From an uncultured archaeon (GTDB lineage Archaea > Aenigmatarchaeota > Aenigmatarchaeia > QMZP01 > QMZT01), in assembly GCA_964346665.1 (NCBI GenBank), contig CAYFVC010000067.1:987-64986 (forward strand): DNA of 64,000 bases, read 5' to 3'. Of this stretch, positions 22,836 through 44,194 are shown one piece after another. The position numbers were made by a program, and so were the translations under genes. Within the stretch, counting starts at the first letter, position 1. Every line of letters begins with the position of its first letter. The notes below the pieces were generated by a model that ran no database searches, was not told the origin of the DNA, and worked only from the letters and a program-made list of their open reading frames with translations.

Positions 22836-22947
22836 GCCTCGGTAGCTCAGTGGTAATTTCGTAGGAAGCAGATTACATCTGCTTCGATCGCTAGGGAGCG
22901 TTCGCTTGGTAAGCGAAAGGTCGCGAGTTCAATCCTCGCCCGAGGCT
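22836..22947 (+). tRNA. tRNA-Thr(GGU) with a ~37-nt intron in the D-loop (non-canonical position)
   Basis: The acceptor stem is 7 bp (gcctcgg/ccgaggc). The D-stem is gctc/gagc. The anticodon arm ttcgc-ttGGTaa-gcgaa is uninterrupted. The T-arm is gcgag-ttcaatc-ctcgc and the discriminator is t. About 37 extra nt lie between the D-stem halves and contain a perfect 9-bp hairpin (gaagcagat-tac-atctgcttc). Confidence 0.7.
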
Positions 22948-23003
22948 TTTGCTTTTTCTCATTACACAAAAACAATTTAAATAAAACACGCGTATAAGAT
23001 AAC

Positions 23004-23096
23004 ATGCCTTGCGGAAGGAAAAGAAAGAGAAAGAAGATGAAGAAGCATAAACTAAAGAAGAGAAGGAAGAAGATGAGGCACAGGAGAAAGAAATAA
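23004..23096 (+). CDS. rpl41e: Ribosomal protein L41e (eL41)-like micro-ORF (30 aa)
   Basis: The ORF (MPCGRKRKRKKMKKHKLKKRRKKMRHRRKK) is extremely basic. Its pattern KKxMxxxLKxRRKxMRxR parallels eL41 (KKRMRRLKRKRRKMRQR). It is too short to appear in the ORF track. Confidence 0.45.
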   Translation: MPCGRKRKRKKMKKHKLKKRRKKMRHRRKK

Positions 23097-23156
23097 CAGT
23101 AATAACTACTTTTAAGGGGTTAAAATATATTTAAATACTCAAATGAAGATTTAAAC

Positions 23157-23954
23157 ATGGCATATAGACCGGATCTTATACTCCTAGTAGACTTCGATGA
23201 AGGGAAATATAGTAAAGGAAGAAAGAATCCACTCTCTGTAAACCAGATTCCTCTAATGCGTTTTCGCGGTTTGTCTTATTTAGGAAAAAATTTGATGAGT
23301 TTTGATGGTAGTCCTGAATACGATAAAAATCAAATAAGGCATGTTATTAAAGCATTTGCCAAATTCCCTGTCAAAATAAAATGTTACGGGGGATCGAAAA
23401 AATGTAGTGGAGTTGCTGAAAAAATTGTCATTCCTTGGGAAATGGTTCACAAACATGATGAACAGGTGGGACCCGAATTAAGAAAACAATTTTACGTTGA
23501 TCAAAGTCAGTTTTGCTGTATAAACTGTTACAATGATAAGAAATATAGAGAAGTTGAGAATGATAAATTAGCTGGTCTCACGGCCCTGCCGATAAGTTTC
23601 GGCATTGCTGTTGCTGGTAAAAAGAGATTTGGAACTAATTTGGATAGAACAGAACTTCACAGAAAATTGAAAAAAATAGCATACCAGTTAATCTCCCAAG
23701 ATACCGGAGAGATAATTGACCCTTATGAAATGAAAGAGCTTTCAAGAATTAGCAAAAAAGGTGCCAAGGAAATAGTTAATAAACTTCTTGGAATTCAAAG
23801 ACCTCCAAAAGAACCAGAACAGGGGGAACTTTTCGATTTGGAACGGAAAAAAGTTAAACGTAAAGAAATTGAATATAAAGAAAGACCTATATTTATATTG
23901 AAAAGAGCACCTCAAAAGAATAAAGGACAACTCATGATTGAAACTAACCTTTAA
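23157..23954 (+). CDS. Hypothetical protein (Cys-containing, AT-rich gene next to tRNA-Thr)
   Basis: The 265-aa ORF carries CYGGSKKC and CCINC cysteine clusters and lies in a region of lower GC. No recognisable family was found. Confidence 0.4.
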   Translation: MAYRPDLILLVDFDEGKYSKGRKNPLSVNQIPLMRFRGLSYLGKNLMSFDGSPEYDKNQIRHVIKAFAKFPVKIKCYGGSKKCSGVAEKIVIPWEMVHKHDEQVGPELRKQFYVDQSQFCCINCYNDKKYREVENDKLAGLTALPISFGIAVAGKKRFGTNLDRTELHRKLKKIAYQLISQDTGEIIDPYEMKELSRISKKGAKEIVNKLLGIQRPPKEPEQGELFDLERKKVKRKEIEYKERPIFILKRAPQKNKGQLMIETNL

Positions 23955-23980
23955 AAACCTCGCATTACAAACTTTATTAA

Positions 23981-24244
23981 ATGAAAGAGTTTAGTGACTT
24001 GAACACCTCTAGGATTTCTTTGGGGGTCCATACCATCACAGGAATAATAGCAGGATATCTTTCGATTTTCTTGGAGAGGGCGCTTTATTCCTTGGGTCTC
24101 GCCATCCTGATACTGATAATAACGGGATACGTAATAGAGTTCGTTTTGAAGAAGAAAGGAATAAAGTGGTGGATGACGAATGGCGGAATCCTTTACATTC
24201 TCGTCTGGCTTGTGAGCTGGGTTTTCTTTTTCAATCTGCCTTGA
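23981..24244 (+). CDS. Small 3-TM membrane protein, hypothetical (upstream partner of get3)
   Basis: The 87-aa ORF has three hydrophobic helices. It ends 12 nt before the get3 start. Confidence 0.45.
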   Translation: MKEFSDLNTSRISLGVHTITGIIAGYLSIFLERALYSLGLAILILIITGYVIEFVLKKKGIKWWMTNGGILYILVWLVSWVFFFNLP

Positions 24245-24256
24245 TCGAGGTGAATT

Positions 24257-25204
24257 ATGCTGGGTTTAAAAAGCAAGGAAACGCAATTTTGCCTGTTTGC
24301 AGGCAAAGGGGGAGTTGGAAAAACAAGCATGGCAGCAGCTGCCGCTTTGCATTTCGCGAGCAAGGGAAAGAAAACCCTGATAATATCAACCGACCCAGCC
24401 CATTCATTATCAGATTCTTTTGAAACGAAAATAGGAGGAGAAATCCGAAAACTACGAAAGAATTTGTTTGCGGTTGAAATCGATCCCAAGAAGGCAATGG
24501 CTGAATACAAGGAGAGGATCACACCACAGATAGAGAAGGTGGATTTTCTGAAAGGACTGGGTTTGGAGGATACGTTAGATTTCGCTGGGAGCACACCTGG
24601 AATAGATGAGATGGCTGCATTTGATAAGTTTTTGCAATACATGCAATCAAAGGATTACGACGTGATAATTTTTGATACGGCTCCAACAGGGCATACACTC
24701 CGCTTCCTTTCGTTGCCCGATGTCTTGGATTCGTGGGTCGGGAAGATGATAAGCATACGTTTGAAATTCTCCGGTTTTATCAACACTTTCAAGAAATTCC
24801 TGCCTTTCGGAGAGCCGGAAAAGGAAGAAAAGAAACTCGGGACAGAGCAGCTCGATGAGATAAAGGAAAGGATAGAGAAGGCAAGGAAGATTATGAGTAA
24901 TAAAGAGAAAACGCATTTCAACCTCGTTATGATACCTGAAGCGATGAGCATATACGAATCCGAACGTTCGATTTCGATATTGAATGAATACGGGATACCA
25001 ATAAAGACGATCGTTGTGAACCAGTTAATACCCGAAAACAGAAAATGCCCGTTCTGCACGGAGAAGAGAAAGCTCCAGAAGGAAAGGCTGGAAGAAATAA
25101 GAAAGAAATTCAAGGGTTATAAGATCCTTCGAATCCCGATGCACAAGGAAGAAGTTAAGGGGTTTGACATGCTCGAGAAAGTGGGGAAAGAATTATATCC
25201 TTAG
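24257..25204 (+). CDS. get3: ArsA/Get3-family ATPase (archaeal Get3-like, CxxC zinc motif)
   Basis: It has a deviant Walker A (GKGGVGKTS) and an A-loop/switch region. The CPFC motif near the C-terminus is characteristic of Get3-type rather than ArsA pump ATPases. Confidence 0.8.
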   Translation: MLGLKSKETQFCLFAGKGGVGKTSMAAAAALHFASKGKKTLIISTDPAHSLSDSFETKIGGEIRKLRKNLFAVEIDPKKAMAEYKERITPQIEKVDFLKGLGLEDTLDFAGSTPGIDEMAAFDKFLQYMQSKDYDVIIFDTAPTGHTLRFLSLPDVLDSWVGKMISIRLKFSGFINTFKKFLPFGEPEKEEKKLGTEQLDEIKERIEKARKIMSNKEKTHFNLVMIPEAMSIYESERSISILNEYGIPIKTIVVNQLIPENRKCPFCTEKRKLQKERLEEIRKKFKGYKILRIPMHKEEVKGFDMLEKVGKELYP

Positions 25205-25207
25205 GGA

Positions 25208-26458
25208 TCATGTTCCTTCTTCCCAGCCTGATAAATACTTCTCTTGATCTTCCGTGAGCTTATCGATTTTTATCCCCATTGACTCGAGTTTCAACTTCGC
25301 TATCCGAGAATCGATCTCCTTTGGGAGTTTGTATACCTTAGGTTCGAATTTCCCCTTGTTCTTGAGAATATATACTGCCGCTAATGCTTGGTTAGCGAAA
25401 GACAGGTCCATCACTTCGCTCGGATGTCCCTCCGCTGCGGCGAGGTTCACGAGCCTTCCCTCAGCAATAAGGTATATCTTTCTCCCGTCCCTTAGCATGT
25501 ATTCCTCCACATTGTCTCTTATTTTTTTCTTGCCCTTTGAAACCGTTTCTAGTTCTGGCAGGTTTATCTCCACATCAAAGTGGCCTGAGTTCGCGATTAT
25601 CGCCCCAGATTTCATGGAAGCAATATGTTTTCGAGTGATCACGTTCTTGTCCCCCGTTGCTGTAACGAAAATGTCCCCCATTCTAGACGCCTCAGACATC
25701 GGCATAACAGAAAAACCATCCATCACCGCCTCTAACGCCTTCAATGGGTCAACTTCCGTTACTATCACGTTTGCTCCCATACCTTTCGCACGCATCGCTA
25801 TCCCTCTTGCACACCACCCGTAACCAGCAACCACGAAGTTCTTCCCAGCAAGAAGGACGGATGTCGCCCTTAGTATACCATCGATAGTGGATTGTCCTGT
25901 TCCATACCTGTTGTCGAAGAGATATTTAGTGTACGCATCATTAATCGCTATTATGGGGTATTTTAAAGCGGAATCCCTCTCCATTGCCCGGAAGCGGATA
26001 ACACCAGTCGTTGTCTCTTCCGTGCCAGCAATTATATTCTTCAACAAATCTTCCCTTCTTCCGTGAACCCTCGTGACCAAATCCCCACCGTCATCCATCG
26101 TTATGTCAGGGTTGAAATCGAGAACGCTGTCAATACACCAGTAGTAATCCTCTTTTTTCACCCCTCTCCAGGCGAAGACGTTTATCCCTTCCTTGACAAG
26201 GGCAGCTGCCACATCGTCCTGCGTGCTCAAGGGGTTCGAACCGCATAAAGCGACTTTCGCTCCCCCTTCCTTCAAGGTTTTAACAAGAACAGCGGTTTCC
26301 TTCGTCACGTGCAAGCAGCACGAGACCGTTACGCCTTTCAAAGGCTTTTCCTTTTGAAATCTTTCTCGTATATTCATTAGAACGGGCATGTGATCTTCAG
26401 CCCAGCGGATTTTCATCTCTCCCTCTTTCGCCAATTTCAAATTCTTGACCTTGCTCAT
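25208..26458 (-). CDS. ahcY: Adenosylhomocysteinase (S-adenosyl-L-homocysteine hydrolase)
   Basis: It has an NAD-binding motif ([10 protein letters not shown]) and the conserved HFDVEI and DDGGDL motifs of SAHH. Confidence 0.9.
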
Positions 26459-26516
26459 TCGAACACCTTTGAAAATGAATTTTTACATTTTAGTTTGGTA
26501 ATATAAATATATAACT

Positions 26517-27533
26517 ATGTTAAAGCAAACGAAAGAAATGCTAGAGGCGTTGAAAACCCCAGAATCATACGATTCGCCTGTTAAGGAAATAAGCTTAATT
26601 CAAACGCACATTTCCTGGGTCTTTCTGACAGGAGACTTCGTTTACAAGATAAAGAAGCCAGTGGATTTCGGGTTTCTCGATTTCACCACACTCGAAAAGC
26701 GGATGAAGTTCTGCAAAAAAGAGCTCGAAATCAACCGGATGTTTTCTCCGGAGATGTACATTGATGTTCTCCCCGTGAACAAATTCGACCACATGATCAA
26801 GATAAACGGGCCGGGGGAAACGATAGACTACGCAATAAAGATGAAGCAGCTTCCCCAGGAAAACCTCATGAACAGGCTGTTGGAGAAGAACCTGATTGAA
26901 ACAAAGACCATTGACAAGATCATTGATATTATTATCGATTTCTACTCAAAGACCCAGACATATACAGACCCACATTCCATAGGCTCTCTTGAAACCGTTA
27001 AATTCAACTGGAAGGAGAACTTTAGACAGACCCGCCCTTTCATCGGGGAAACGATCGACCAGAAAACATTCGATACGATCGAAAGGAAAGTTTCTGAATT
27101 CATGGAGAAAAATAGCGAGCTATTCAGCAAGCGCCTTCGCGAGGGGAAAGTCAAGTGGTGTCACGGGGATTTGCACTCAGGGAACATTTTCGTTGTGAAC
27201 GAAAAGATATACATATTCGATGCGATCGAGTTCAACGAGCGCTTCGCTTGTTCGGACGTTGCAAGCGATATAGCATTCTTCTTGATGGATCTCGATTTCC
27301 ATCACAGGAAATTCCTTTCCGATTATTTTCTGAAAAGATACGTAGAGAAAACCGGGGACAGCGAAGTAACAAAATTCCTTGATTTCTACAAGTGTTACCG
27401 GGCGTTTGTGAGGGGGGAGGTGACAGGATTCAAAATTAACGATCCCAATGTGCCTGATTTCGAAAAGAAGGAGGCGAAAAACACCGCCAAGATGTACTTT
27501 CAGCTCGCCCTCGAATACGCGAAGAATTTCTAA
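26517..27533 (+). CDS. Protein-kinase-like phosphotransferase (APH/choline-kinase fold family)
   Basis: It has a catalytic-loop motif (HGDLHSGNIF) followed by a D-x-x-E-F-N-like metal-binding segment (IFDAIEFNERF). Both are hallmarks of APH-family kinases. Confidence 0.55.
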   Translation: MLKQTKEMLEALKTPESYDSPVKEISLIQTHISWVFLTGDFVYKIKKPVDFGFLDFTTLEKRMKFCKKELEINRMFSPEMYIDVLPVNKFDHMIKINGPGETIDYAIKMKQLPQENLMNRLLEKNLIETKTIDKIIDIIIDFYSKTQTYTDPHSIGSLETVKFNWKENFRQTRPFIGETIDQKTFDTIERKVSEFMEKNSELFSKRLREGKVKWCHGDLHSGNIFVVNEKIYIFDAIEFNERFACSDVASDIAFFLMDLDFHHRKFLSDYFLKRYVEKTGDSEVTKFLDFYKCYRAFVRGEVTGFKINDPNVPDFEKKEAKNTAKMYFQLALEYAKNF

Positions 27534-27850
27534 GTTTTCTTTTTCTTCTTGAGCATCCCATTCATGGACTCTTCTCCGTAAAGGGTTTGCTCATAGAGTT
27601 CAGGGTATTTCTCAAGAATTTCGATACCGTTGAGGTTCGGATCGCTTATCTCCCACACGTAAGAATTCTTCTTTTTGTCAAAGTTTTTTCTTACAAACCC
27701 GGTTTTTTCCAGAACCACCATGTTGGGGACGAGGGTTTCGAGGTTTCTTGGAGATTTGTCTGCGACGTGGTTTATGATCTCGTTCGTGGTCACAGGCCTG
27801 TTCTGTTTCTCCAAAAGTTCCTTCAGCAGGTTGAAAGTTATTATCGGCAT
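27530..27850 (-). CDS. Hypothetical small protein (possible winged-helix)
   Basis: The 106-aa ORF has a 4-nt overlap with the convergent kinase gene end and a C-terminal poly-Lys tail. The family assignment is weak. Confidence 0.3.
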   Translation of the reverse strand: MPIITFNLLKELLEKQNRPVTTNEIINHVADKSPRNLETLVPNMVVLEKTGFVRKNFDKKKNSYVWEISDPNLNGIEILEKYPELYEQTLYGEESMNGMLKKKKKT

Positions 27851-27852
27851 GT

Positions 27853-28185
27853 TCAGACCGCCTTTATGAATTTACACTCTGGATCGACTTCCACGAAGTG
27901 TTTCGCTCTCCCCTCCCTGAATTCTCTGCACTGGTTTTCAGGAATATTGTCAACATTTTCCCTCGGCGAGTGAGCGACATCGCAAACCCAGTCTTCCACA
28001 TCCCAGTTCGGATTGTCGTCCGAGAGGCAGGGACCGTTCGAAAGATCTTCACCGGCTGACAACTTAGTTTCACATAACTCTCTGCACATCTCTACTTCTA
28101 TATCCTCATCCTCTGGAAATACATATACATCTACACAACCAGAAACTAGTATAATTCCCACCAAAAATATGAGAATCCACCTCAA
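27853..28185 (-). CDS. Small secreted Cys-rich protein (lipobox-like LVSGC signal)
   Basis: It has an N-terminal signal peptide followed by eight Cys and an acidic region. It is adjacent to the preceding ORF. Confidence 0.4.
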   Translation of the reverse strand: MRWILIFLVGIILVSGCVDVYVFPEDEDIEVEMCRELCETKLSAGEDLSNGPCLSDDNPNWDVEDWVCDVAHSPRENVDNIPENQCREFREGRAKHFVEVDPECKFIKAV

Positions 28186-28234
28186 ACAATCACCCCATTC
28201 AAACTTGGTTCTTTGATTTAAAAATTATCAATGT

Positions 28235-28951
28235 TTATACAATCTTGAAGTAAACCCTACGGTTGTTCTTTCCCTTGTTCTCCGCCTTGAGGAATTCGAT
28301 TTTCCCTATCTCTTTCGTGGATTTCACATGAGTCCCACCATCAGCTTGTATGTCAAATCCTTCGATCTCCACTATCCTGAGTTCCTTTATGCTCGGGGGG
28401 AGAACGTTTGCGAGTTTGGTGATGTTCTCTATTTTCATCGCCTCTTCCCTCGGGAGGAAATACATTTTCACGTTCAGGTCTTTTCCCACGATCTCGTTCG
28501 CCTTTGCGAAATACTCGGACATCTTCTCCCTGTCGAAGTCCTCCAGGCTGAAGTCTATCCTTGATTTGTTGAGATCAAGCTGGTTTCCCGTTATCATCGC
28601 ACCAGAATCCTTGTGAAAAACCTCTGAAATTATGTGAGCCGCCGTGTGCATTCTCATAAGTATATATCTCCTCTCCCAGTCTATCGTTCCCTTTACCACA
28701 TCGCCTTCTTTCAAGCCTTCTTTCGAAACTTCATGCGATATTTTCCCTGAGAACTTCCCGACATAAACCACCGGGTACTCCACACCATCCTTCACGAATT
28801 TCCCTCTATCGTGTGGCTGCCCTCCAGAATTCGGATAGAAGGCGGTTTTATCGAGCACGACGAAGAATTTATTCTCCCCGCCTTTCGTTACACTAACGAC
28901 ATTCGCCTCGAACCCCTTCAAATACGAATCATCCATGTAAAGCGCATTCAT
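28235..28951 (-). CDS. alaX: AlaX-type alanyl-tRNA editing (trans-editing deacylase) domain protein
   Basis: It has HxxxH (HTAAHI) and a C-terminal GGTHV motif typical of the AlaRS editing domain / AlaX-M. The 238-aa length fits. Confidence 0.8.
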   Translation of the reverse strand: MNALYMDDSYLKGFEANVVSVTKGGENKFFVVLDKTAFYPNSGGQPHDRGKFVKDGVEYPVVYVGKFSGKISHEVSKEGLKEGDVVKGTIDWERRYILMRMHTAAHIISEVFHKDSGAMITGNQLDLNKSRIDFSLEDFDREKMSEYFAKANEIVGKDLNVKMYFLPREEAMKIENITKLANVLPPSIKELRIVEIEGFDIQADGGTHVKSTKEIGKIEFLKAENKGKNNRRVYFKIV

Positions 28952-28953
28952 AA

Positions 28954-29049
28954 TAGCGGGAGGTGGAGACTCACCTCCCGAAGAAGGTTTTGAACCACCG
29001 ACCTCTGGGTTATGGGCCCAGCGAGCACTCCAGGCTGCTCCATCCCGCT
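28954..29049 (-). tRNA. Initiator tRNA-Met(CAU) with ~21-nt intron in the T-loop region
   Basis: On the minus strand the gene reads agcggga-tg-gagc-agcctggagt-gctc-g-ctggg-ccCATaa-cccag-aggtc-ggtgg-ttcaaa[21 nt]t-ccacc-tcccgct-a. A1:U72 and three G:C pairs in the anticodon stem are initiator features. The extra 21 nt sit inside the T-loop. Confidence 0.7.
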
Positions 29050-29115
29050 ATGCAGTGTATTTCGTGGGAATGTTATAAATAGTTTGTATTTTAATATTTA
29101 ATTACTATCTAAGGG

Positions 29116-29415
29116 GTGTCTTGTTTGGAGGAAGATGAAGTTCTAATAACAGACATATTCAAGAAGGTAACACAGGAATTGGGGAATCTCGAGATGGAGA
29201 GGAAGATCCTTGCGGACTTGATCAAGGACCTCAGAAAAAAGATAAAATCCCTTGACCGAAGGGAAGCGAGACTGCGTTCCCAAATAATGGAACTTGTTAA
29301 GAATGAAACACAGCTCAGCAAGAGAAAGGTCAGGCTGGAAAAGAGACTCGAAAAAACGAGAAAGAAATTGAAAAAAATCTCCGAGGCCAAGAAGTCGCTT
29401 TCCGAAGCGTTTTAA
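29116..29415 (+). CDS. Hypothetical coiled-coil protein
   Basis: The 99-aa ORF has heptad-like charged repeats (LRKKIKSLDRREARLRSQIMEL). No family was recognised. Confidence 0.35.
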   Translation: MSCLEEDEVLITDIFKKVTQELGNLEMERKILADLIKDLRKKIKSLDRREARLRSQIMELVKNETQLSKRKVRLEKRLEKTRKKLKKISEAKKSLSEAF

Positions 29416-29909
29416 AATCTCTCCCAGCGGATCACGTCTTCCATCTTTTTCTTGTCATGGGGTTCGGGGTTCTTTTCGAAATAACCCAGTGGTATGAAGC
29501 AAACGATTTCGTAGTCTTCCGGTATTTCTAGGACCTCTCTTGCATGATCAACATCCTTCCCAAGAGCGGCAACGTAACAAGATCCTATTCCGAGGGATTT
29601 CGCGGAAAGCATTATATTTTCGGAAGCTAGACAACAATCTTCCACGTATCTCTTTACACTTTTGTCACCGCAAACAACTATGCAGGCCGCAGCATCCTTA
29701 ATGAAACTCCCGTATTCCATGTGTTCTGAAATTTTGGCCAGTTTTTCTTTATCGGTCACCACTATGAACTTCCAAGGTTGGATGTTTCTCGCTGAAGGGG
29801 AAAGCCTGGCACAATCTATTATCTCCTCAAGTATTCGTTTTTCTATCGCTTTGTCGGAGAATTCCCTCACACTCCTCCTTTCCTTCAAAATCCGGATAAA
29901 CTCGTTCAT
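29412..29909 (-). CDS. Nitroreductase-family protein
   Basis: The RRSVREF N-terminal motif, the 165-aa size and the conserved (SARN)QPW segment are typical of the NADH oxidase / nitroreductase fold. Confidence 0.75.
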   Translation of the reverse strand: MNEFIRILKERRSVREFSDKAIEKRILEEIIDCARLSPSARNIQPWKFIVVTDKEKLAKISEHMEYGSFIKDAAACIVVCGDKSVKRYVEDCCLASENIMLSAKSLGIGSCYVAALGKDVDHAREVLEIPEDYEIVCFIPLGYFEKNPEPHDKKKMEDVIRWERF

Positions 29910-30412: not shown

Positions 30413-30460
30413 AATATATATTTTTCATATATTTATTGGTTCGCATTTATAGAATAAAAT

Positions 30461-35745: not shown

Positions 35746-37531
35746 TCACACTCTGCTCCCCCTCGCTCACAACCTCAATACCACATTCGCCTAATGCGAT
35801 TTCAATTTTGTATATCTCGCTGGGTTTTATAGATTCCGAAATCCCCTCGACAAATGGGAGGTAAATATAAATTTCATTTTCATCCCCGGTCGAAAGATAT
35901 ACAGTTTCAACATAACCAACGGTTTCACTCGTTTGATTGTTCACTATCGCTCCAAACACATCATAAACCCCTGGTTTGAGGATCATTTTAGTTTCTCCTA
36001 TGAAACCTTCCGAACCTATATTGTAAAGCATTATGTTGTCCCCGTCTTCCGGTTTAATGTAAACGAGAACGAAGTAGTCTTCGGAGAAAAGGTTTATCGA
36101 CCTGGGTTGGCCGGAAACCGAATAATCTTTATAAGTTCCCCCTGCTTTCGGATCTCCGGGTTTCACAGGAACTCCGTAAAAATGAACTGGTATCTCCTTC
36201 CCTCCACCCTCTAGGACAACGGAATAACCCTCAAGATTGCTAGCTTTCAAAAGTTTTCTATGCTCCCTGTACCCTTCCTTATGAATCGAAATCTCCCCTA
36301 TCATGCATGGTATTCCTGAATTCAACAATCCTAGGTAATCAGTCTCCCCTAGCGAGCAACCCCCGAACGTGACCAGCGCTTTGCTTACAGGAAGACCTTT
36401 CGAATCCCTTACGTTCACGCTTGCTAGGCACCCGCTTTCCATCACGCATTTTTCATGATAAGATGTTTTCTCCCCTTTCCTGAAACCACATCCAGGCTCA
36501 TTCTCATCAATGTTCACCATTATCGCGAAATTGAACAACTGATCAAACACATCGTCCTCGATCATCACAATTATAGGATATCGAAACGAATAACGAACAT
36601 CCATAGTTTCGATACAGGTGGAGGAGAACGAAATGACGGGTTTCGGGTAGAATACAACAGGATTAGGCTCAATATCGAAGTTGTTTCCTAAGTTCCAGTC
36701 TTCTGGGTAAACAAATGATACTTGAAGGTCTGAATCCGCGACCCCTAGCAAATAAAACGGATTCTCGGGAAGATCTAAAACATCCCTGTTGAAAACAGTG
36801 TGACTAGCTGTATACTTCACAAGGTTTTCGAGAGAATTCCGAACTTCGCTTTCGGTTTTGAATAACGTATTCCTACAACCTGTTCTCAGATCTATTGTTG
36901 GAAGCCATTCCTCCTCGGGGTTTGAATAAAGTATGGTGTTTAGCGTGGCGGACTCGAGAAATTTAGAATTATTATTCCTGTTTGTTATATCTTCCGAGAC
37001 CTCGATTATTTCCTTAAGCTTCGAAGGTATAAGGATGCTGTATGGTTGGGGGATGCTAGAATTCTCCACGAATGTCGGCATATTCACATCGATCTTTACC
37101 CCGTTATCCTGTATGCTAACGAAAACGTCGAGGTTTCCCAGATCGATAGAAACACCCTTCCCGAAAAATTCCATCTCTGGCTTGAAAACCACTTTAATTC
37201 TTTCCTCCAAATCCTTTTCAAGAATTTTCTCTATTTTTGGTATTTCTGTCCTGTCACAATCCCCCCATATCCCTATTTCCTTCACCCCGTATCTCACCGT
37301 GTTTTCCGAGTTTGAAATTCCCCCTGTTCTGTATATTTCCCTCAGTTCTTTCTTTCCGGAGTCCCTTATCGAGTTGAGGATGGAGTCCTTTATCAGTTTC
37401 TTTTCCTCTCCTAACCCTGTCACAATAGGTCGATCCTCCTCTGCAACGAACCCCCCGAAGGAAACGAGGATAACGACAACCGCGATCACTATGAAGGCAA
37501 AAACAGCTATAAACTCAACCTGACCTTTCAT
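35729..37531 (-). CDS. Large class III signal peptide (type IV pilin-like) protein
   Basis: The N-terminus MKGQVEFIAVFAFIVIAVVVILV matches the archaeal prepilin KG|Q cleavage context followed by a hydrophobic helix. The protein is 600 aa long. Confidence 0.5.
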   Translation of the reverse strand: MKGQVEFIAVFAFIVIAVVVILVSFGGFVAEEDRPIVTGLGEEKKLIKDSILNSIRDSGKKELREIYRTGGISNSENTVRYGVKEIGIWGDCDRTEIPKIEKILEKDLEERIKVVFKPEMEFFGKGVSIDLGNLDVFVSIQDNGVKIDVNMPTFVENSSIPQPYSILIPSKLKEIIEVSEDITNRNNNSKFLESATLNTILYSNPEEEWLPTIDLRTGCRNTLFKTESEVRNSLENLVKYTASHTVFNRDVLDLPENPFYLLGVADSDLQVSFVYPEDWNLGNNFDIEPNPVVFYPKPVISFSSTCIETMDVRYSFRYPIIVMIEDDVFDQLFNFAIMVNIDENEPGCGFRKGEKTSYHEKCVMESGCLASVNVRDSKGLPVSKALVTFGGCSLGETDYLGLLNSGIPCMIGEISIHKEGYREHRKLLKASNLEGYSVVLEGGGKEIPVHFYGVPVKPGDPKAGGTYKDYSVSGQPRSINLFSEDYFVLVYIKPEDGDNIMLYNIGSEGFIGETKMILKPGVYDVFGAIVNNQTSETVGYVETVYLSTGDENEIYIYLPFVEGISESIKPSEIYKIEIALGECGIEVVSEGEQSVSVPCG

Positions 37532-37562
37532 ATTAAATATATTTCGTTTCTAAATAATTAAG

Positions 37563-40400
37563 ATGAAGTTGAAATTCCTGTTGCTCATTCTTGCAGTTCT
37601 GATTGTTTTGCCGTTTTTTGTTTTTGGCCAAGGCGAACAAGCAATAACTGATGAATTGGGTATAATGGGTGTTCACAAGACTGAGGCAGAAAATATCATA
37701 AAAAGTCTAGAGGACGCAGAAGAAATAAAGATAAGGGTTTACATAAGCAAAGATAACTTTGATGATGAACAATCATTTAGGAACTTTTCTCGGTCAAAAT
37801 ATCGGGATTACGAATTGGATTTAAAAGGAACTCCACTTTATAACATTCTTATTTTTTACGCCCATGTTTACGAGGGTAATCTAAAAAAACCGTACCTGGG
37901 TTACGTATATTCTGAGAGATGTGGAGCTATGAATGATATGGTAAAGGAACTTAGAGTGGGTTATTTAAGTCAAGAGCAAGAGCTTTCAGGAGATGAACTT
38001 CTGGGAATAGTAAAAGAAGTTTCTGACGGTATAAAAAGGATAGTTTTCACTCATAGTTATGACTGCATAATCAACATTTGCGAATATGAAATTAGATATA
38101 ATGAAGCCGATTGTGAAGAGTTTGACCCCTCAAGGCCAGAAGATGTATACACATGTATAAGATGGAATAATGAAATAGGATGTTATTACGCTAAGGGGAT
38201 CGATGAGGAATTAAAATCCCAGGTTTCGCGAGAGGAAGACATGGAGATATTGGAGGACAAAACTGTTTACCTCATAGATGACAATAACTGGAAAGATATC
38301 CTAAGTCTCTATCCTTTGACAACATATCATTACGTAAGCAAGGATATCGTAAAAATCACGGAAATAGAGGAGATGAAAGCAAGAAAAAATAGCATCAGAT
38401 ACAGCCCAACCCTTTTATACCATAGGGAGGGGGATAATTTGGATCTGGATTCGACCCTCATATTCCTCAAGCAGTTCAGACCAAGCGAAGTTGTCATAGT
38501 CCATAACGACATTCCAAAGAAACTCAATCTCGCTCTGGAAAAATACGAATTAAAACACCTCTCCGTGGAAGATTACCATGAACTGTGGAATAAAAAAGGC
38601 TACGAATACATCGTTGTTTCGGAAAATGACTACAAGACAGGACTGCTGGCTTCTGTTTTTGCTTCCTATCTTAATGCCCCACTGGTGTTCGAAAATTCTA
38701 AAGAATTCGATGAATACGACTTCGAGGACAAAAAAGTTTACTATGTTCACCCTCATTCCAAGAACAGCGAAACCTATTCCTCCATATTAGAAAAAACATC
38801 AGCCGATAATATCACATCCTATGATATTCCTACGCTGCAGAAGATATACGTTGAATACACGAACACGGACAAAATAATACTTGTCAACCCAAACGATATA
38901 AAGGATGAATACTGCGAGCATTTTGAGTACAAAACAGAATTCGGAAAGATTAAAGACAATTACTGCAGGGATTCCCTGGTTTCCCCCCTACTTGCAACTT
39001 TAAAGAATGAGCTTATCGTTTTCACGGATGTTGAACCTCTGGAAAAGGGGGTTGAAATAGGAAGGGAATCGAAAAGGTTTGGAAATTGCACTTCATACGT
39101 AATGGACAGATACTCAAATCCCGAAAAGCAGGAGTTTGAGAACGAGATTGAAACCAAATCAGCAACAGTTAAACAGGATATTCAAGAGGCAATAGAAAAC
39201 ACATGCTGCCCTTATGTTGAGATCAATTACCTCACGATAATTTCAAGCCCAAAAATGATACCATTAAGCGGTTTTTGGAGCTGTTTTTATAATCTGGGTG
39301 AATTCAGATCAAGCCTTGATTTAAAATACTCTCCTGAAAGCGCAAACGGCTGGATTTTCGGAATATCCATTTCCGACACTTCAAGTTACATGAATAGGGA
39401 TGCGAGCTTTTATAAACACGGTTTATCCTATTTACCTAGTCAATCTGATGTGAGAATGTTTCAGAAAATAGGCCTGATAGCATACGATTTACCGGATGAA
39501 CAAAAGTACGTACCTGATCTGGCGAATCAGCTTGATGTTCAAGGCTACAATGTATCTTGTTTTGTTGGCAATGAATCAATCGCCATAAACAACTGTAAGG
39601 AGGGAAGGGCAAGAGGCTCGTTCCTCGGCGAAAACGATATAATACTTTATGATGATCACGGGCGCACGTATTCCTGGAAAGGTATAGATTCGGATGAAAT
39701 ACCTGAACTTCATTCTCCCATAGCGATAGCTGCCGCCTGTTTTACCATGGACTACTACAAATCAGAAAGAGATGAACTCTTCGGTTCCAACTTCATTAGG
39801 ATGGGAGGTCTGGGTTATTATGGAGGCGTCTCGTTTATGATTGCTAGTGATATGGGGAAAGAACTGATTTATAATATTTTTGAAGGATACGATCTAGGAA
39901 ACACCCTTAAGGCGGCCCGAAGAAAAATACAAGATGCTGGAGACAGGTATATACTTCTCGGAGACCCGACGATCAAACCAGCCTTAATCGGCGAAGTGAA
40001 AATCGCAGAAATGAAGGAAGAGGCCGAACGCAAAGGTTATAAGTGCATTGCAGTGGCCGGAAGGAAGAAATGTTACAGAACAGATTTTTTCAAAATTAAA
40101 TGTGGTGAGGACGATTTTGGCGACCCCGAGATTAAATGCATAGATTTGTCCAAAAAATATTCTATAAAGCGCGAGTTCGGTGGTGATTATTATGTTGTAT
40201 TTGGAAAAAACAGATTCCAAAAATCAGATGAAAGATCAATAACCTGCGGAGATTTCTACTACGAGGGACCCTTCTTGGCAACTCCGGACGGAGATGCATG
40301 GTTGGGTGAAGTTACTTGCAAGGTAGAAGAAAACATGTGCCTTGATGAACCGAAAATAGTGAATATAGGAGGAACGCTTAAAAAGAAACTGGTAACATGA
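37563..40400 (+). CDS. Large secreted protein with putative clan CD (gingipain/clostripain-like) cysteine peptidase His-Cys dyad
   Basis: It has a signal peptide. About 33 residues separate YDDHGRT from AIAAACF, which is the His-Gly...Ala-Cys spacing of C25/C11/C13 peptidases. The protein is Cys-rich. Confidence 0.4.
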   Translation: MKLKFLLLILAVLIVLPFFVFGQGEQAITDELGIMGVHKTEAENIIKSLEDAEEIKIRVYISKDNFDDEQSFRNFSRSKYRDYELDLKGTPLYNILIFYAHVYEGNLKKPYLGYVYSERCGAMNDMVKELRVGYLSQEQELSGDELLGIVKEVSDGIKRIVFTHSYDCIINICEYEIRYNEADCEEFDPSRPEDVYTCIRWNNEIGCYYAKGIDEELKSQVSREEDMEILEDKTVYLIDDNNWKDILSLYPLTTYHYVSKDIVKITEIEEMKARKNSIRYSPTLLYHREGDNLDLDSTLIFLKQFRPSEVVIVHNDIPKKLNLALEKYELKHLSVEDYHELWNKKGYEYIVVSENDYKTGLLASVFASYLNAPLVFENSKEFDEYDFEDKKVYYVHPHSKNSETYSSILEKTSADNITSYDIPTLQKIYVEYTNTDKIILVNPNDIKDEYCEHFEYKTEFGKIKDNYCRDSLVSPLLATLKNELIVFTDVEPLEKGVEIGRESKRFGNCTSYVMDRYSNPEKQEFENEIETKSATVKQDIQEAIENTCCPYVEINYLTIISSPKMIPLSGFWSCFYNLGEFRSSLDLKYSPESANGWIFGISISDTSSYMNRDASFYKHGLSYLPSQSDVRMFQKIGLIAYDLPDEQKYVPDLANQLDVQGYNVSCFVGNESIAINNCKEGRARGSFLGENDIILYDDHGRTYSWKGIDSDEIPELHSPIAIAAACFTMDYYKSERDELFGSNFIRMGGLGYYGGVSFMIASDMGKELIYNIFEGYDLGNTLKAARRKIQDAGDRYILLGDPTIKPALIGEVKIAEMKEEAERKGYKCIAVAGRKKCYRTDFFKIKCGEDDFGDPEIKCIDLSKKYSIKREFGGDYYVVFGKNRFQKSDERSITCGDFYYEGPFLATPDGDAWLGEVTCKVEENMCLDEPKIVNIGGTLKKKLVT

Positions 40401-41266
40401 AACGAAGTCTAACGCTCTTGGGTTTCGCAGTTTTCCTTTTGTTAGCTTTGCCTGTCTATTCACTCGAGATAGTGAACTTCGAGGATACAGAAGGCAAAAC
40501 CTTTTACCCTGAGGATTTCGTTGATCTCGGGACGGTTTTGATCAACGATGAGAATAACACACTCAACCTTTTCGTTGAGCAGTATGTTTTAAGGCCCGGA
40601 ATAGACCCTATGCCGTTGTATGAAGAATTTACCATAAAACCTGATGGCGACGTTATGATTTCTGATATGAGTTTCATAGTCTCTGAATATCTATTCCCTG
40701 GAAAATACACGCATATGGTAAGGGTTCGCAAATCAGGGGAAATCGTGGCGGAGAAAACAACTAAATTCTACGTGACTGGAACGAAGGAGAAGTTGAGCGA
40801 TTTCGAAATACTAATTTGCGCGGATCATGGATGCAAGGACCTGAGACCGGTTTTAATTCTTGGGGAAACAGCATACATACGGGTGGAATGTCTAGAAAAC
40901 CCTGAAATTTCAGGCTATGTTGTCCACGATGGCGATACCACGACCCTGAGTTTCGATGAAGGGCTCGCGAGTTTCAAAGCAGTTTCGGAGGGAACATACA
41001 TAGCGAATGTGATATTCTCGAAAGACGGCTTCTTCACAGAGAATATCGAGAGAGACATAACATTCGTAAAGGAGGGGCCAAAAGTAATCTATTATTTCTG
41101 TAGCGATGTGAAGGACGGGGTCTGCGAGGATTGCCCTGATGGGGATGATCCTGACTGCGGGAAAATAACCTTTGGTTACGAATACGCGATTGTCTTGGTA
41201 GTCATTCTCGTTATCTTTTTCCTGATAGGCTTGTTTTTCTTTAGAAAGAGCGCTATGAGGGTTTAA
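40397..41266 (+). CDS. Surface protein with signal peptide and C-terminal TM anchor
   Basis: It has an N-terminal signal and a C-terminal hydrophobic helix (IVLVVILVIFFLIGLFFF) followed by a basic tail. It overlaps the upstream gene by 4 nt. Confidence 0.45.
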   Translation: MKRSLTLLGFAVFLLLALPVYSLEIVNFEDTEGKTFYPEDFVDLGTVLINDENNTLNLFVEQYVLRPGIDPMPLYEEFTIKPDGDVMISDMSFIVSEYLFPGKYTHMVRVRKSGEIVAEKTTKFYVTGTKEKLSDFEILICADHGCKDLRPVLILGETAYIRVECLENPEISGYVVHDGDTTTLSFDEGLASFKAVSEGTYIANVIFSKDGFFTENIERDITFVKEGPKVIYYFCSDVKDGVCEDCPDGDDPDCGKITFGYEYAIVLVVILVIFFLIGLFFFRKSAMRV

Positions 41267-41297
41267 TATATATTCCACTCGGGGTAAATTAAATTAT

Positions 41298-42719
41298 ATG
41301 AAATGGCTTTTTCCTTTCGTGATCACGTTTCTGTTGCTTGTTCCTCTGGGAAGTTCACTGGAAGGCGGAACGATCCTCTCGGTTGAGCCCGGGACAGGGT
41401 ATAAGTGTGTGTACGTAAGCCTCCCCCAGGATCTCGGTATGAGCTATGTTGACAGAACTTTGGAAACGGTCATAGAGGTGGACAAAGGGGAAAGCCCATG
41501 GACGGACACGACGTACAGCAAGGTCGTTATGGAGCCTGGGGTTTTGAACAAGAACCCTGTTTGCTTCTACTATTCGGAAAAGGAAGAGGGGGATTTTTCT
41601 TTTTACAGTATAAGCCTGTCCTCGCGTGATATCGGAGTTTCGAGTTCGATTTCAGGAGGGTTGTGCGTTTCTGGTTACGAGGATGTTGATACAGGGGTGG
41701 ATATGGAGAACGAAACGGATATATGTAAACTTCTGAACGAGAACGCTGACATAATAGACCTCAGCTTCAAGGAGGAGGTTACGCAGGCGAAGCCAGGGGA
41801 AATCGTTACCAAAACGTTATACATAACCTCTTATGCGAACCTCAGGATACGGCTTTCCATCGCAACGAACCTTCAGAACGATTTCGGAGAGCCGGTTGTG
41901 ACGACTTCTCCTTCAAACCCGACCGCTATGAAAACGTTCAAGGTTAAGGCTCCCGAAAGGGAGGGGGAATTCGAGATGATAGTGAACGCGCAGGCCGAGG
42001 GTTGCGAAATACAGGCGTGCAAAAAACAAAAGAAGGGAACGATATCAGTCACAACAAAAGAAAAGGAAGGTTTCACGGCTTCGGTTATACCGGAAAACAT
42101 AAACCTGAAAGAGGCAGGGGAAACCATCTTTAGGGTGGTCATTTCGAATTACGATGAATCACAGGATTTCCTCATAGAGGCGAGTTCAAGTCCTTCGATG
42201 AATATAGAGCCTGAATCAAAAACCGTTAACTTAGGCGAAAACGAGGAGAAGACAACCGTTTTCAAGGCATTCCCAGGAGAGGAGGATTTGTACAAGATAG
42301 AATTCAAGATAACTTCCGAAAAATCCGAGAAGTTACTGACTTCTCATATCTCGATAGGCGAGCTTCTTACCGATGCGTTCAGGTATTCGGAAGCAAGCGA
42401 AAAGGTTTCGACCCCTGACATAAGGGAAGAGATAAGGAACGCTAGGATCGAATACGAAGAGAAGTACAAAACAACCTCGTACGGCGAGGATGTGAATGAG
42501 TATGAGAATTTCATAGACACGATTGACGAGCTGAAGAAGACTTCTGAGAGCGGAGGGAACGGGAAAGACGAAAAAGAGCCTAAAGAGGAGGGGTTCAACT
42601 GGCTGTTTCTTGTGATACCCGTTATTGTGATAGTAGTTATTATCCTTCTTTTTATTGCTTATAAGAGGTCGAAGGTTGCGAGTTCAGGATACCAAGGTTA
42701 CGAATATTCTAGGATTTAA
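41298..42719 (+). CDS. Surface protein with signal peptide and C-terminal TM anchor
   Basis: It has an N-terminal signal and a C-terminal TM (WLFLVIPVIVIVVIILLFIAY) plus a KRSK tail. The acidic ectodomain is 473 aa. Confidence 0.45.
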   Translation: MKWLFPFVITFLLLVPLGSSLEGGTILSVEPGTGYKCVYVSLPQDLGMSYVDRTLETVIEVDKGESPWTDTTYSKVVMEPGVLNKNPVCFYYSEKEEGDFSFYSISLSSRDIGVSSSISGGLCVSGYEDVDTGVDMENETDICKLLNENADIIDLSFKEEVTQAKPGEIVTKTLYITSYANLRIRLSIATNLQNDFGEPVVTTSPSNPTAMKTFKVKAPEREGEFEMIVNAQAEGCEIQACKKQKKGTISVTTKEKEGFTASVIPENINLKEAGETIFRVVISNYDESQDFLIEASSSPSMNIEPESKTVNLGENEEKTTVFKAFPGEEDLYKIEFKITSEKSEKLLTSHISIGELLTDAFRYSEASEKVSTPDIREEIRNARIEYEEKYKTTSYGEDVNEYENFIDTIDELKKTSESGGNGKDEKEPKEEGFNWLFLVIPVIVIVVIILLFIAYKRSKVASSGYQGYEYSRI

Positions 42720-42775
42720 CAAATATTTAAATATAAATATGAAATTAATAGAAATTCAGAGACCGGGAGGTAAGT

Positions 42776-43072
42776 ATGAAAGCAGTGTTTTTCATCCCTG
42801 CGGAAAATTTTTCCAAAGTTAAAAACACCGTCTATGAGGACGATTTGGTGTCAAGGCAGACAATCAATTTCAGGGAAGCGCGGGCGCTAGGTTTCGAAAA
42901 GGACGGGTATTACCTCGAAATAGACGGCTCCGGCGAAGCTGTGAAGAAGACGAAAGAATTAATCGGGGACATGGGAAAGGAAGTTGATAAGAAGGAGAAA
43001 GAAGAGATTCTGAAAAAGATTTCAGAACAAGAGGAATCAGCTGCGCAGGGATTTGGCACAATTTTCGGATGA
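42776..43072 (+). CDS. Hypothetical protein
   Basis: The 98-aa ORF has an acidic C-terminus and no recognised motif. Confidence 0.3.
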   Translation: MKAVFFIPAENFSKVKNTVYEDDLVSRQTINFREARALGFEKDGYYLEIDGSGEAVKKTKELIGDMGKEVDKKEKEEILKKISEQEESAAQGFGTIFG

Positions 43073-43147
43073 CAACTTAGAATGAAAGTAAAGGTCATCA
43101 GCAGATATCTGTTGGCATAGACGAAGTCTATGTCTTTCGAAAGGTAT

Positions 43148-43385
43148 GCGTCGGTAGTCTAGTCTGGTGCTCGCCCCGCGAGAAGCGAATGGGCACTAGG
43201 ACACAGGCTTGCCAAATCGAAACCTCCAGCGGGTTTCGATGCATCCAGCAACCATAATGCAAAAAGCCTGTAACCCGGGTTCAAATCACATTTACGGGCT
43301 GGTAAAATACGTGAACATTTTTCGGCCAGCCGACTTTTGAGGAAGCCGGCTGCTCCCGTAAAAGGTGGCTATCCCGGCCGACGCA
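43148..43385 (+). tRNA. tRNA-Gly(GCC) interrupted by three introns (D-loop ~29 nt, canonical 37/38 ~50 nt, T-loop ~86 nt)
   Basis: The exons assemble a 73-nt cloverleaf. The acceptor gcgtcgg pairs with ccgacgc, and the discriminator is a. The D-stem is gtct/ggac, with the D-loop split by a 29-nt insert. The anticodon arm is caggc-ttGCCa[50 nt]a-gcctg. The T-stem ccggg/cccgg flanks ttcaaat plus an 86-nt insert. Each insert contains its own perfect hairpin. Confidence 0.65.
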
Positions 43386-43426
43386 TACAAATTAATTATT
43401 TATTATTGAAACGCGAAATAATAAAC

Positions 43427-43927
43427 ATGAAACTTTTCAAAAAGAAATCCGAGGAAATCAAGGAACTACAACCGGAAAAACTACCAAAACTAACAGAAGA
43501 GGAAAAGGAATTCGAACCTCCGGCCAAACTACCTGAAATAAAGAAAGTCCAACCACCTCCACCAAGGCCAGCGGTTTCTAGATCACCACCGATTTTCATA
43601 AAGGTTGACAAGTACAGTGATATCATAAAAAACATTCGGGATCTCAAATCACACATTCTCAACCTAAGGGATGCTCTCGATGTTCTCGATGATATGCAGA
43701 AAGAGATTATGAACGGGATAGACCTTGCACACAAAACCCTTGATGAGCTGAACATGATAATATCGAATCTGGATTCCTTTTTCATGAGACCTCAGGGAAT
43801 CGAACATCACATGGAAGAGGAAATACCAGAACCCGGAAGGATGAGTCCTGATGAGGTCGAGGGCTACATGACAGATGTCCAAACCCAGCTCCAGAAGTTG
43901 CGGTCTCAACTTAAGGCTATACAATAA
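43427..43927 (+). CDS. Hypothetical coiled-coil protein with Pro-rich linker
   Basis: The start is at MKLFKKK (43427). The tool ORF starts inside the tRNA gene and is considered over-extended. It has a PPPPRP linker followed by a coiled-coil C-terminal half. Confidence 0.4.
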   Translation: MKLFKKKSEEIKELQPEKLPKLTEEEKEFEPPAKLPEIKKVQPPPPRPAVSRSPPIFIKVDKYSDIIKNIRDLKSHILNLRDALDVLDDMQKEIMNGIDLAHKTLDELNMIISNLDSFFMRPQGIEHHMEEEIPEPGRMSPDEVEGYMTDVQTQLQKLRSQLKAIQ

Positions 43928-43962
43928 ATATAATAACCTTGTTTTTCATATATTTCTAATAT

Positions 43963-44194
43963 GCGGGGGTAGCCAAGAAACCCTTTTGCGCAAGTAAACG
44001 CACAAAAGCGTTTACGGAAAATACGCTGACGCAGGGGTTTGGCACTGGTCAAAGGCGATAGGCTCAAGACCTATTCACTTAGTGTGTTCCTGGGTTCGAA
44101 CACCGCTTTTTCAATAAAAGCGGTGGAGCAAAATGGAGCCAACGTCGCTCACATTGTTCGCTCCTGGCTTCCATCGGAATTCCCAGCCCCCGCA
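43963..44194 (+). tRNA. tRNA-Leu(CAA) with two non-canonical introns (D-loop ~65 nt, T-loop ~80 nt)
   Basis: The acceptor gcggggg pairs with cccccgc, and the discriminator is a. The D-stem gcc...ggc is separated by an over-long insert. The anticodon arm atagg-ctCAAga-cctat is intact. A 15-nt variable arm fits a class II Leu tRNA. The T-stem ctggg/cccag encloses ttcgaa plus an 80-nt insert that forms its own hairpins. Confidence 0.65.

Follow-up and report, generated by a model that had tools for sequence, protein, structure and literature searches.

Predicted BHB introns in all tRNA genes of a 64-kb stretch of a Candidatus Aenigmatarchaeota genome

Why is every tRNA gene in this 64-kb stretch of archaeal DNA (the window, meaning the whole stretch that was analysed) interrupted, also at positions other than the canonical 37/38, and is this a property of one locus or of a lineage? 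The earlier note on this DNA had counted four tRNA genes, all of them intron-containing. All are indeed interrupted, but the true count is five, a tRNA-Ser(GGA) gene outside the range that it covered (22836-44194) having been overlooked. The nine introns, one to three per gene, lie at 59/60 (four), in the D loop (three) and at 37/38 (two). Those previously placed in the D loop of Thr, the T loop of iMet, the D and T loops of Leu, and the D loop, 37/38 and T loop of Gly are all present. The genes and their introns are the following:

22836-22947, + strand: tRNA-Thr(GGU) gene, 112 nt, one intron; Rfam tRNA match of 60 bits with a 41-nt D-loop insert, ARAGORN on the spliced form
22855-22894, + strand: Thr D-loop intron, 40 nt, position 20/21, strict hBHBh′ (H 4 bp, h 4, h′ 3)
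28954-29049, - strand: initiator tRNA-Met(CAU) gene, 96 nt, one intron; weak Rfam match of 26 bits, ARAGORN on the spliced form
28968-28988, - strand: iMet T-loop intron, 21 nt, position 59/60, strict hBHBh′ (H 4, h 5, h′ 6)
43148-43385, + strand: tRNA-Gly(GCC) gene, 238 nt, three introns; ARAGORN on the spliced form
43168-43196, + strand: Gly D-loop intron, 29 nt, position 19/20 (or 20/21, with an identical product), relaxed BHB (H 4 bp including two G-U, h 0, h′ 1)
43215-43264, + strand: Gly canonical 37/38 intron, 50 nt, strict hBHBh′
43286-43371, + strand: Gly T-loop intron, 86 nt, position 59/60, relaxed hBH (H 3/4, h 5, h′ 1)
43963-44194, + strand: tRNA-Leu(CAA) gene, 232 nt, two introns; ARAGORN on the spliced form
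43978-44045, + strand: Leu D-loop intron, 68 nt, position 15/16, relaxed HBh′ (H 4, h 0, h′ 7)
44101-44180, + strand: Leu T-loop intron, 80 nt, position 59/60, relaxed hBH, with a module of about 75 nt inside it (44101-44172)
47365-47493, - strand: tRNA-Ser(GGA) gene, 129 nt, two introns
47435-47456, - strand: Ser canonical 37/38 intron, 22 nt, relaxed (H 3/4, h 6, h′ 0)
47379-47402, - strand: Ser T-loop intron, 24 nt, position 59/60, relaxed (H 3/4, h 5, h′ 4)

On the unspliced window ARAGORN and Rfam detect only tRNA-Thr among the five genes, apart from the weak iMet match. Once the introns are removed in silico, full cloverleaves are obtained and ARAGORN assigns all five (Thr, Met, Gly, Leu and Ser). 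The genes are neither split nor permuted: all five are collinear, and a distance of 96-238 nt separates the 5′ from the 3′ acceptor strand. We consider it highly probable (roughly 90%) that the insertions are archaeal BHB tRNA introns in a genome of Candidatus Aenigmatarchaeota (DPANN), and that their high load results from rapid gain and loss.

The junctions provide the first line of evidence. Three or four of the four central pairs of a BHB (a 4-bp central helix with two 3-nt bulges) form at all nine junctions, in the register of the mature tRNA. Three junctions are strict hBHBh′ (Thr, iMet and Gly 37/38) and the other six are relaxed, which bears out the relaxed BHB recognition that had been proposed from the sequence. 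Added up over all nine junctions, the BHB score comes to 53, compared with 20.2 ± 3.9 for shuffled introns (maximum of 35 in 2000 shuffles). Taken individually, several junctions are weak: out of 2000 shuffles, the observed score is attained by 977 at Ser 37/38, which alone is indistinguishable from shuffled introns, by 296 at the Gly T-loop, 149 at the Gly D-loop and 127 at the Leu T-loop junction, and by none at the Ser T-loop junction. The Ser 37/38 intron is assigned from the spliced cloverleaf and from the presence of 37/38 introns in all Ser orthologs. At the level of the clade, 95 of the 100 central-helix cells of 25 distinct 59/60 junctions pair in register, as against 17-58 when the register is shifted, and position 57 covaries with its partner (A57-U in 14 cases, G57-C in 8, G57-U in 2 and one mismatch).

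The rule that cleavage follows the second bulge base is confirmed by the intronless orthologs, and the register of the Leu D-loop intron was set by the intron-free D-arm of its ortholog in L007. In the case of Thr, the strict BHB predicts G21 in the spliced product, while intronless orthologs have A21. An A at position 21 is near-universal in tRNAs. Other Thr splice registers that restore A21 were rejected, as none of them forms a BHB; in L092, which has an intron at the same Thr position, A21 is obtained only because the third bulge base is A. Also rejected was a nested intron inside the Gly T-loop intron, where an internal 62-nt strict BHB is present but its removal gives no better outer junction. 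The idea that the introns carry C/D-box guide RNAs was discarded too, inspection of the window introns having found no C box (RUGAUGA).

The sequences and the comparison with relatives show the following arrangement. Each pre-tRNA keeps its cloverleaf arms, with the introns protruding as stems from the D loop, the anticodon loop or the T loop. Four exon or intron bases pair across each junction to form the central helix, placing the splice sites after the second base of the two 3-nt bulges. By analogy with the known pathway, the splicing endonuclease EndA would cut both bulges and the ligase RtcB would join the exons. The 59/60 position behaves as a hot spot, likely because the near-invariant T-loop sequence UUCRAAU gives one strand of the central helix, so that an intron with a 3′ end of the form YGRA-NN can likely make a valid junction in any tRNA. 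In a different DPANN archaeon, the organism's own EndA cuts a 59/60 hBH intron in vitro (PMC3239211).

Which enzyme might cut these junctions? Because six of the nine are relaxed and lie at non-canonical sites, the endonuclease must have broad specificity. The earlier note had pointed to a heteromeric or epsilon-type enzyme, read here as either (alpha-beta)2 or a three-unit epsilon2 EndA. The window has relaxed motifs (hBH and HBh′) away from the canonical site, which is consistent with this view, since such junctions were classically cut by these two types only (PMC5829648, PMC3239211), and so is the EndA of about 445 aa, matched over three stretches, of a Micrarchaeota relative (L013). The inference is not a necessary one, however, as alpha4 enzymes with an L3 insert are reported from several DPANN lineages whose tRNAs are heavily disrupted (PMC5829648). 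Our searches gave no EndA attributable to Aenigmarchaeota, and we place this reading slightly under even odds. An alpha4-type homotetramer, to which the DPANN L3 insert would give broad specificity, likewise falls a little short of an even chance. It has precedents in Woesearchaeota, Pacearchaeota and Nanohaloarchaea (PMC5829648), and many DPANN-labelled single-unit EndAs of 170-210 aa are found in databases, but none of them could be linked to Aenigmarchaeota. Pfam found neither EndA nor RtcB in the 64-kb window, and none was found in the Aenigmarchaeota loci examined. Searches of all window and locus ORFs by phmmer and hmmsearch, with a M. jannaschii-like EndA and a DPANN EndA profile, matched only the L013 protein, and database searches returned enzymes of Methanococcales, of DPANN 'Nanoarchaeota/Woesearchaeota' and of the two-unit euryarchaeal type, none labelled Aenigmarchaeota. 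Kaneta et al. 2018 concluded that, for EndA specificity, the type of subunit counts least (PMC5829648).

How far do the introns extend beyond this locus? Judged by its proteins, the source organism is a member of Candidatus Aenigmatarchaeota: the relatives of topA and Cbf5 are in MAGs of this phylum, in agreement with the DPANN part of the previous description of the housekeeping proteins as euryarchaeal/DPANN-like. Of 37 orthologs of the Thr, iMet, Gly, Leu and Ser genes in 11 related genomes, 33 contain introns. Relatives also have tRNA genes with four introns, and introns of up to 170 nt, compared with a maximum of 86 nt in the window. Window introns recur in the independent assemblies L001, L003, L007 and L089. 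The Thr D-loop intron is found again in L089, and L092 has the same position occupied, while the intron is absent from L090 and L091; the iMet T-loop intron is also present in L001, L003 and L089, the Gly D-loop intron has a homolog in L007, and the Gly 37/38 intron is 96% identical to an intron of L003. Spliced Gly, Leu and iMet orthologs are recognised as tRNAs by ARAGORN in 21 of 21 cases. In MAG JAZGEG01 (L091) both Thr and iMet are intronless, and so is Gly in L005 and L006. Without its intron the window iMet matches its intronless counterpart in L091 at 100% identity, and the window Gly without its introns differs from the intronless Gly of L005 and L006 by one D-loop base.

The claim of a genome-wide incidence of 100%, for which 65 kb of the source genome could be used, is right in that a high load extends beyond the locus in related genomes, but the load is not uniform in the clade, given the intronless genes of L091, L005 and L006. 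The proposal that the introns are a strong phylogenetic marker does not hold. Intron presence and position vary among genomes with 80-88% TopA identity, and multi-intron tRNAs are also found in the unrelated Thermoproteales and in ARMAN-2. Because close relatives differ in this way, the heavy intron load is a tendency of the clade and not a stable marker. The relatives show very rapid gain, loss and sharing of introns between genes, and the high load is very probably the outcome of this turnover, orthologous genes of close relatives carrying different introns.

Two window introns, Leu 59/60 and Gly 37/38, belong to sequence families that are found in other tRNAs and at other positions. The module in the Leu 59/60 intron, of about 75 nt, consists of a hairpin followed by AAATGGAGCC...CCTGGCTTCC and shares 88-95% identity with modules from the T-loop introns of Gly(GCC), Gly(CCC), Lys, His and Ser and from D-loop introns of Leu. 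In L046 and L052 the family of the Gly 37/38 intron is represented at Leu position 59/60, with 83% identity over 36 nt between the window intron and the L046 copy. Similar introns therefore sit at differing positions and in differing tRNA species, as in the transposed intron families of Thermoproteales. The module of about 75 nt was also found inverted and at non-tRNA sites. A metagenome scan for the intron module returned 70 stretches where about 50 are expected by chance, 12 of them being true homologs by the sequence between and around the anchors. A copy of an intron-type module also lies outside the tRNA genes of the window:

52966-53006, + strand: non-tRNA copy of an intron-type module (AAGCCTTTTACCCAAAAGGCTTAATCGAAAACCAGTAGCT), immediately 3′ of the stop codon of a MoxR-like gene

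This copy resembles, at 90-95% identity, parts of the Thr, Gly(CCC) and Ser introns of L090, L028, L007, L003, L004 and L092. The occurrence of the module of about 75 nt in inverted orientation and outside tRNA genes suggests mobility at the DNA level. We tentatively propose, as a possibility that we rate somewhat below one in two, that a small non-autonomous mobile DNA element (about 75 nt, with the hairpin and the two sequence blocks) builds and spreads the tRNA introns of this clade, supplying the intron-side half of the BHB and using the T loop as a universal landing site.

Could the tRNA genes instead be pseudogenes, broken by small MITE-like or REP-like repeats, with functional copies elsewhere? 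The modules do occur outside tRNA genes and in both orientations, and several introns contain runs of four to five T, which are possible archaeal terminators. Against this, the exons are intact and match those of intronless orthologs, each insertion lies in BHB register with covariation, spliceable structures are kept in all syntenic orthologs of the 11 genomes, and second copies are absent from about 410 kb of clade DNA, which makes decay of these genes very improbable. An origin of the insertions as group I or group II introns that splice themselves, or as errors of assembly, is scarcely credible, for although group I introns are known in DPANN rRNA genes (PMC6125680), insertions of 21-86 nt are too short for a ribozyme core, no Rfam intron family was matched at E values up to 10, and identical insertions reappear in independent assemblies.

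Predicted BHB introns under rapid gain and loss are the preferred reading. Intron-riddled tRNAs of this sort are already known, and what is new is the lineage. Our literature search found no account of tRNA introns in Aenigmarchaeota, nor any archaeal tRNA interrupted four times, the documented maximum being three introns. Standard annotation found one of the five window tRNA genes and almost none in the related contigs. In consequence, Aenigmarchaeota genomes look tRNA-poor, and inferences on completeness or auxotrophy go wrong unless intron-aware searches are used. The mechanism of archaeal tRNA intron gain and loss is still described as unknown in the review literature (PMC4090602). The many close MAGs that have differing intron sets at orthologous genes, together with recognisable modules, offer a natural experiment on this process. 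If the proposal of a mobile module is true, it would be the first sequence-defined vehicle of archaeal tRNA intron gain, and it would account for genes with four introns, above the documented three.

Among known systems, ARMAN-2 (Candidatus Micrarchaeum, with an epsilon2 EndA; Fujishima et al. 2011, PMC3239211) is also a DPANN archaeon in which introns break up many tRNAs at non-canonical positions. It too has relaxed hBH introns at 59/60, several introns per gene and genes that escape standard tRNA finders. It differs in belonging to another phylum and in an incidence of 56%, compared with 5/5 here and 33/37 in the clade sample; introns are also longer here, reaching 86 nt in the window and 170 nt in its relatives. 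Thermoproteales (Sugahara 2008; Fujishima 2010; reviewed in PMC4090602) share the occurrence of related introns across positions and tRNAs and a rapid, lineage-specific gain, but they are TACK hyperthermophiles with an (alpha-beta)2 EndA that carries a Crenarchaea-specific loop, whereas the Aenigmarchaeota clade has a defined module of about 75 nt, inverted and at non-tRNA sites, and up to four introns per gene in relatives. The alpha4 EndAs with L3 (Kaneta et al. 2018, PMC5829648) come from the same superphylum, and in them broad specificity is likewise associated with disrupted tRNAs; that study predicts hidden disrupted tRNAs in DPANN genomes (PMC5829648), and Aenigmarchaeota were outside its sampling. 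The introns described here would widen the link of broad-specificity splicing with tRNA disruption to a further DPANN phylum.

Reading the intergenic DNA, together with a scan for bulge-helix-bulge (BHB) geometry (four central pairs joining x-5..x-2 with y-5..y-2, and each 3-nt bulge cut 3' of its second base), recovered all the introns listed in an earlier note on this DNA. A second scan, of both strands, sought T-arms (TTCRA with a stem of 5 bp) that continue into a 7-bp acceptor stem, insertions allowed; among GC-rich candidates it gave exactly five tRNA genes.

tRNA genes and introns of the window
22836-22947 (+), tRNA-Thr(GGU): intron 22855-22894 (40 nt, position 20/21)
28954-29049 (-), tRNA-iMet(CAU): intron 28968-28988 (21 nt, 59/60)
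43148-43385 (+), tRNA-Gly(GCC): introns 43168-43196 (29 nt, D-loop), 43215-43264 (50 nt, 37/38) and 43286-43371 (86 nt, 59/60)
43963-44194 (+), tRNA-Leu(CAA): introns 43978-44045 (68 nt, 15/16) and 44101-44180 (80 nt, 59/60)
47365-47493 (-), tRNA-Ser(GGA): introns 47435-47456 (22 nt, 37/38) and 47379-47402 (24 nt, 59/60)

These nine introns comprise four at 59/60, three in D-loops and two at the canonical site. The statement that all four tRNA genes of the window carry introns thus holds as a generalisation (5/5) and errs in its count, the Ser gene, beyond the range then considered, having been overlooked. On the unspliced window ARAGORN reports the Thr gene alone, truncated; Rfam at the gathering threshold finds one tRNA (22836-22947, 60 bits, D-loop insertion of 41 nt), to which a permissive scan adds just one partial, sub-threshold initiator-like match at 28980-29045 (-). 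Once spliced in silico, the Thr, iMet, Gly and Leu genes are all called by ARAGORN as full cloverleaf tRNAs (4/4).

Do the junctions exceed what chance would offer? Scoring central pairs plus inner helix, the nine introns sum to 53, against 20.2 ± 3.9 (maximum 35) in 2000 shuffles of the introns with exons fixed. The Thr, iMet, Gly 37/38, Leu D-loop and Ser T-loop junctions are individually strong against the shuffles, and those of the Gly D-loop, Gly T-loop, Leu T-loop and Ser 37/38 are, taken singly, weak relaxed motifs. By our own criteria, three are strict (hBHBh'), one near-strict, one HBh', three hBH and one poor. In minimum-energy folds of the pre-tRNAs the tRNA arms are retained, with the introns projecting as stems. 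Across the clade, 25 distinct 59/60 junctions pair in register at 95 of 100 central-helix cells, versus 17-58 with the register shifted, and base 57 and its partner covary (A-U 14, G-C 8, G-U 2, mismatch 1). Intronless orthologs confirm cleavage after the second bulge base, and in the Gly genes of two related loci (L004, L007) UUCAAAU is obtained solely with that cut. For the Thr intron (region 22855-22895), a strict BHB places G at mature position 21, as in the related locus L089; the near-universal A21 is given by the intronless Thr genes of L090 (a 1.1-Mb Aenigmarchaeota contig) and L091 (MAG JAZGEG01), and by L092, with an intron at the same site. In several window introns (44101-44125, 43330-43340) the sense strand has four or five consecutive T, as with GCTTTTTCAA in the Leu T-loop intron and, in that of Gly, CATTTTTCGG; many relatives show this too. 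Archaeal transcription usually terminates at oligo-T, so read-through of such pre-tRNAs needs explanation.

The comparison with relatives used their syntenic Gly, Leu, Ser, iMet and Thr genes, each placed on the mature window sequences by spliced alignment. No window intron is common to all orthologs, and most recur in one or more independent assemblies: L089 has the Thr intron, L001, L003 and L089 have that of iMet, L007 has the Gly D-loop intron, and L003 and L004 have the one at Gly 37/38. The Gly genes of L005 and L006 lack introns and differ by one base from the spliced window Gly; the iMet gene of L091, also without an intron, matches the spliced window iMet exactly; Thr is intronless in L090 and L091. 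After splicing, each of the 21 Gly, Leu and iMet orthologs is recognised as a tRNA, and in 122 kb of contigs from relatives Rfam at gathering threshold picks up just 2 tRNAs. At least one intron is present in 33 of 37 genes (five orthologous genes, 11 genomes of the clade), with 0, 1, 2 or 3 in Gly, 1 to 4 in Leu and 0, 1 or 3 in Thr. Content varies sharply among close relatives. The high load is thus a property of the clade, but a labile one; the earlier idea of a genome-wide property survives as a clade-wide load and not as a fixed state, and the introns, proposed as a strong phylogenetic marker, do not make a clean one.

Four BHB introns occur in the Leu genes of L002 (9335-9679), L003 (9429-9663) and L046 (1894-2203), at D-loop, anticodon-stem 31/32, variable-arm and T-loop sites, and in tRNA-Gly(CCC) of L028 (532-240); the documented maximum in the searchable literature is three per gene. 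The Leu introns of L002 and L003 are each missing from one ortholog or more, and their removal leaves sequences called tRNA-Leu; the L046 and L028 genes, each with two D-loop introns, were parsed by eye only.

Some introns belong to families that recur at other sites. The window Leu 59/60 intron holds a ~75-nt module (a hairpin with compensatory changes at five pairs, then AAATGGAGCC, about 22 nt and CCTGGCTTCC), with homologs of 88-95% identity in T-loop introns of Gly(GCC), Gly(CCC), Lys(CUU), His(GUG) and Ser and in the Leu D-loop intron of three genomes. It is inverted in the Ser T-loop introns of L028 and L035, and lies at two non-tRNA sites, in L037 and in L057, where a 40-nt direct repeat flanks it. 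The window Gly 37/38 family recurs at Leu 59/60 in L046 and L052. Another module, with AAKCGAAAAC after a hairpin, has 17 of 20 copies inside tRNA genes and lies also at 52966-53006 of the window, directly 3' of a protein-coding gene. The inverted and non-tRNA copies suggest that modules may move at the DNA level.

Other elements adjoin tRNA genes in relatives. The iMet gene of L090 (16812-17504 (-)) has a 22-nt HBh' intron at 7/8 in place of the T-loop intron; directly upstream, a 194-aa LAGLIDADG_3 homing-endonuclease ORF sits between a promoter plus first 12 nt of iMet and the real gene, and another partial copy of the iMet 5' end lies nearby. In L091 (13925-14581 (-)) the iMet gene has no intron; after it come a 148-aa ORF and then a displaced, degenerate iMet 3' fragment retaining the 21-nt 59/60 intron, as if an integrated element had replaced the intron-bearing gene end. 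L006 (8922-9600) carries after tRNA-Leu a ~190-codon ORF, which L005 lacks, and then a diverged tRNA 3'-end duplicate, GGCGATTCGAATCCCTATCCCCGCA; this arrangement is an att-like signature of a predicted integrated element. In L028 (632-533 (-)), some 100 nt upstream of the complete tRNA-Gly(CCC) gene, there is a partial duplicate of its 5' end, made up of GCGCCGATAGCCCAG and a hairpin module of intron-like type.

Housekeeping proteins had been described as euryarchaeal/DPANN-like, and a DPANN source is borne out: relatives of TopA (44520-46622; 71-88% identity, synteny conserved) come from MAGs titled Candidatus Aenigmatarchaeota or 'uncultured archaeon', those of Cbf5 (21967-22755; 75-85%) are labelled Candidatus Aenigmarchaeota, and Candidatus Aenigmatarchaeota belongs to Nanobdellati (DPANN). 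Pfam annotation gives ribosomal proteins, PCNA, MetRS and others, and confirms the class I GAPDH and RadB-like protein reported before. A 30-codon Lys/Arg-rich ORF downstream of tRNA-Thr (23004-23096 (+), MPCGRKRKRKKMKKHKLKKRRKKMRHRRKK), in the same place in L089 and L090, looks like an eL41-type tiny ribosomal protein. Four tandem paralogs at 11028-16218 (+) encode PQQ/BamB-like beta-propeller proteins of 420-431 aa. Immediately upstream of tRNA-Ser, a ~180-nt non-coding stretch (47494-47673) with no Rfam match is 79.5% identical in L001, 73% in L003 and 68% in L035, and may represent a long leader or a small RNA not yet recognised.

Which enzyme processes these transcripts? Relaxed motifs at non-canonical sites mean that a broad-specificity endonuclease is needed. 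Pfam annotation of the window gave neither the splicing endonuclease EndA nor the ligase RtcB, and searches of window, fetched loci and databases returned no Aenigmarchaeota EndA. A heteromeric or epsilon2 enzyme, as first proposed, is not a forced conclusion, because in several DPANN lineages alpha4 enzymes with an L3 insert also accompany strong tRNA disruption (PMC5829648). The Micrarchaeota locus L013 encodes, about 3 kb from topA, a ~445-aa epsilon2-like EndA (6229-7566 (-); three EndA-like stretches matched), and a second, weakly EndA-like ORF at 18298-18795 (-).

The closest precedents are ARMAN-2, whose epsilon2 enzyme cleaves a 59/60 hBH intron in vitro (PMC3239211), and Thermoproteales, whose 'intron transposition' pattern matches the spread of modules and intron families described here (PMC4090602). 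Beyond precedent are the density (9 introns in 5 window genes), the dominance of 59/60 among intron positions, the four-intron Leu and Gly(CCC) genes of relatives and a sequence-defined intron module common to tRNA introns and non-tRNA sites.
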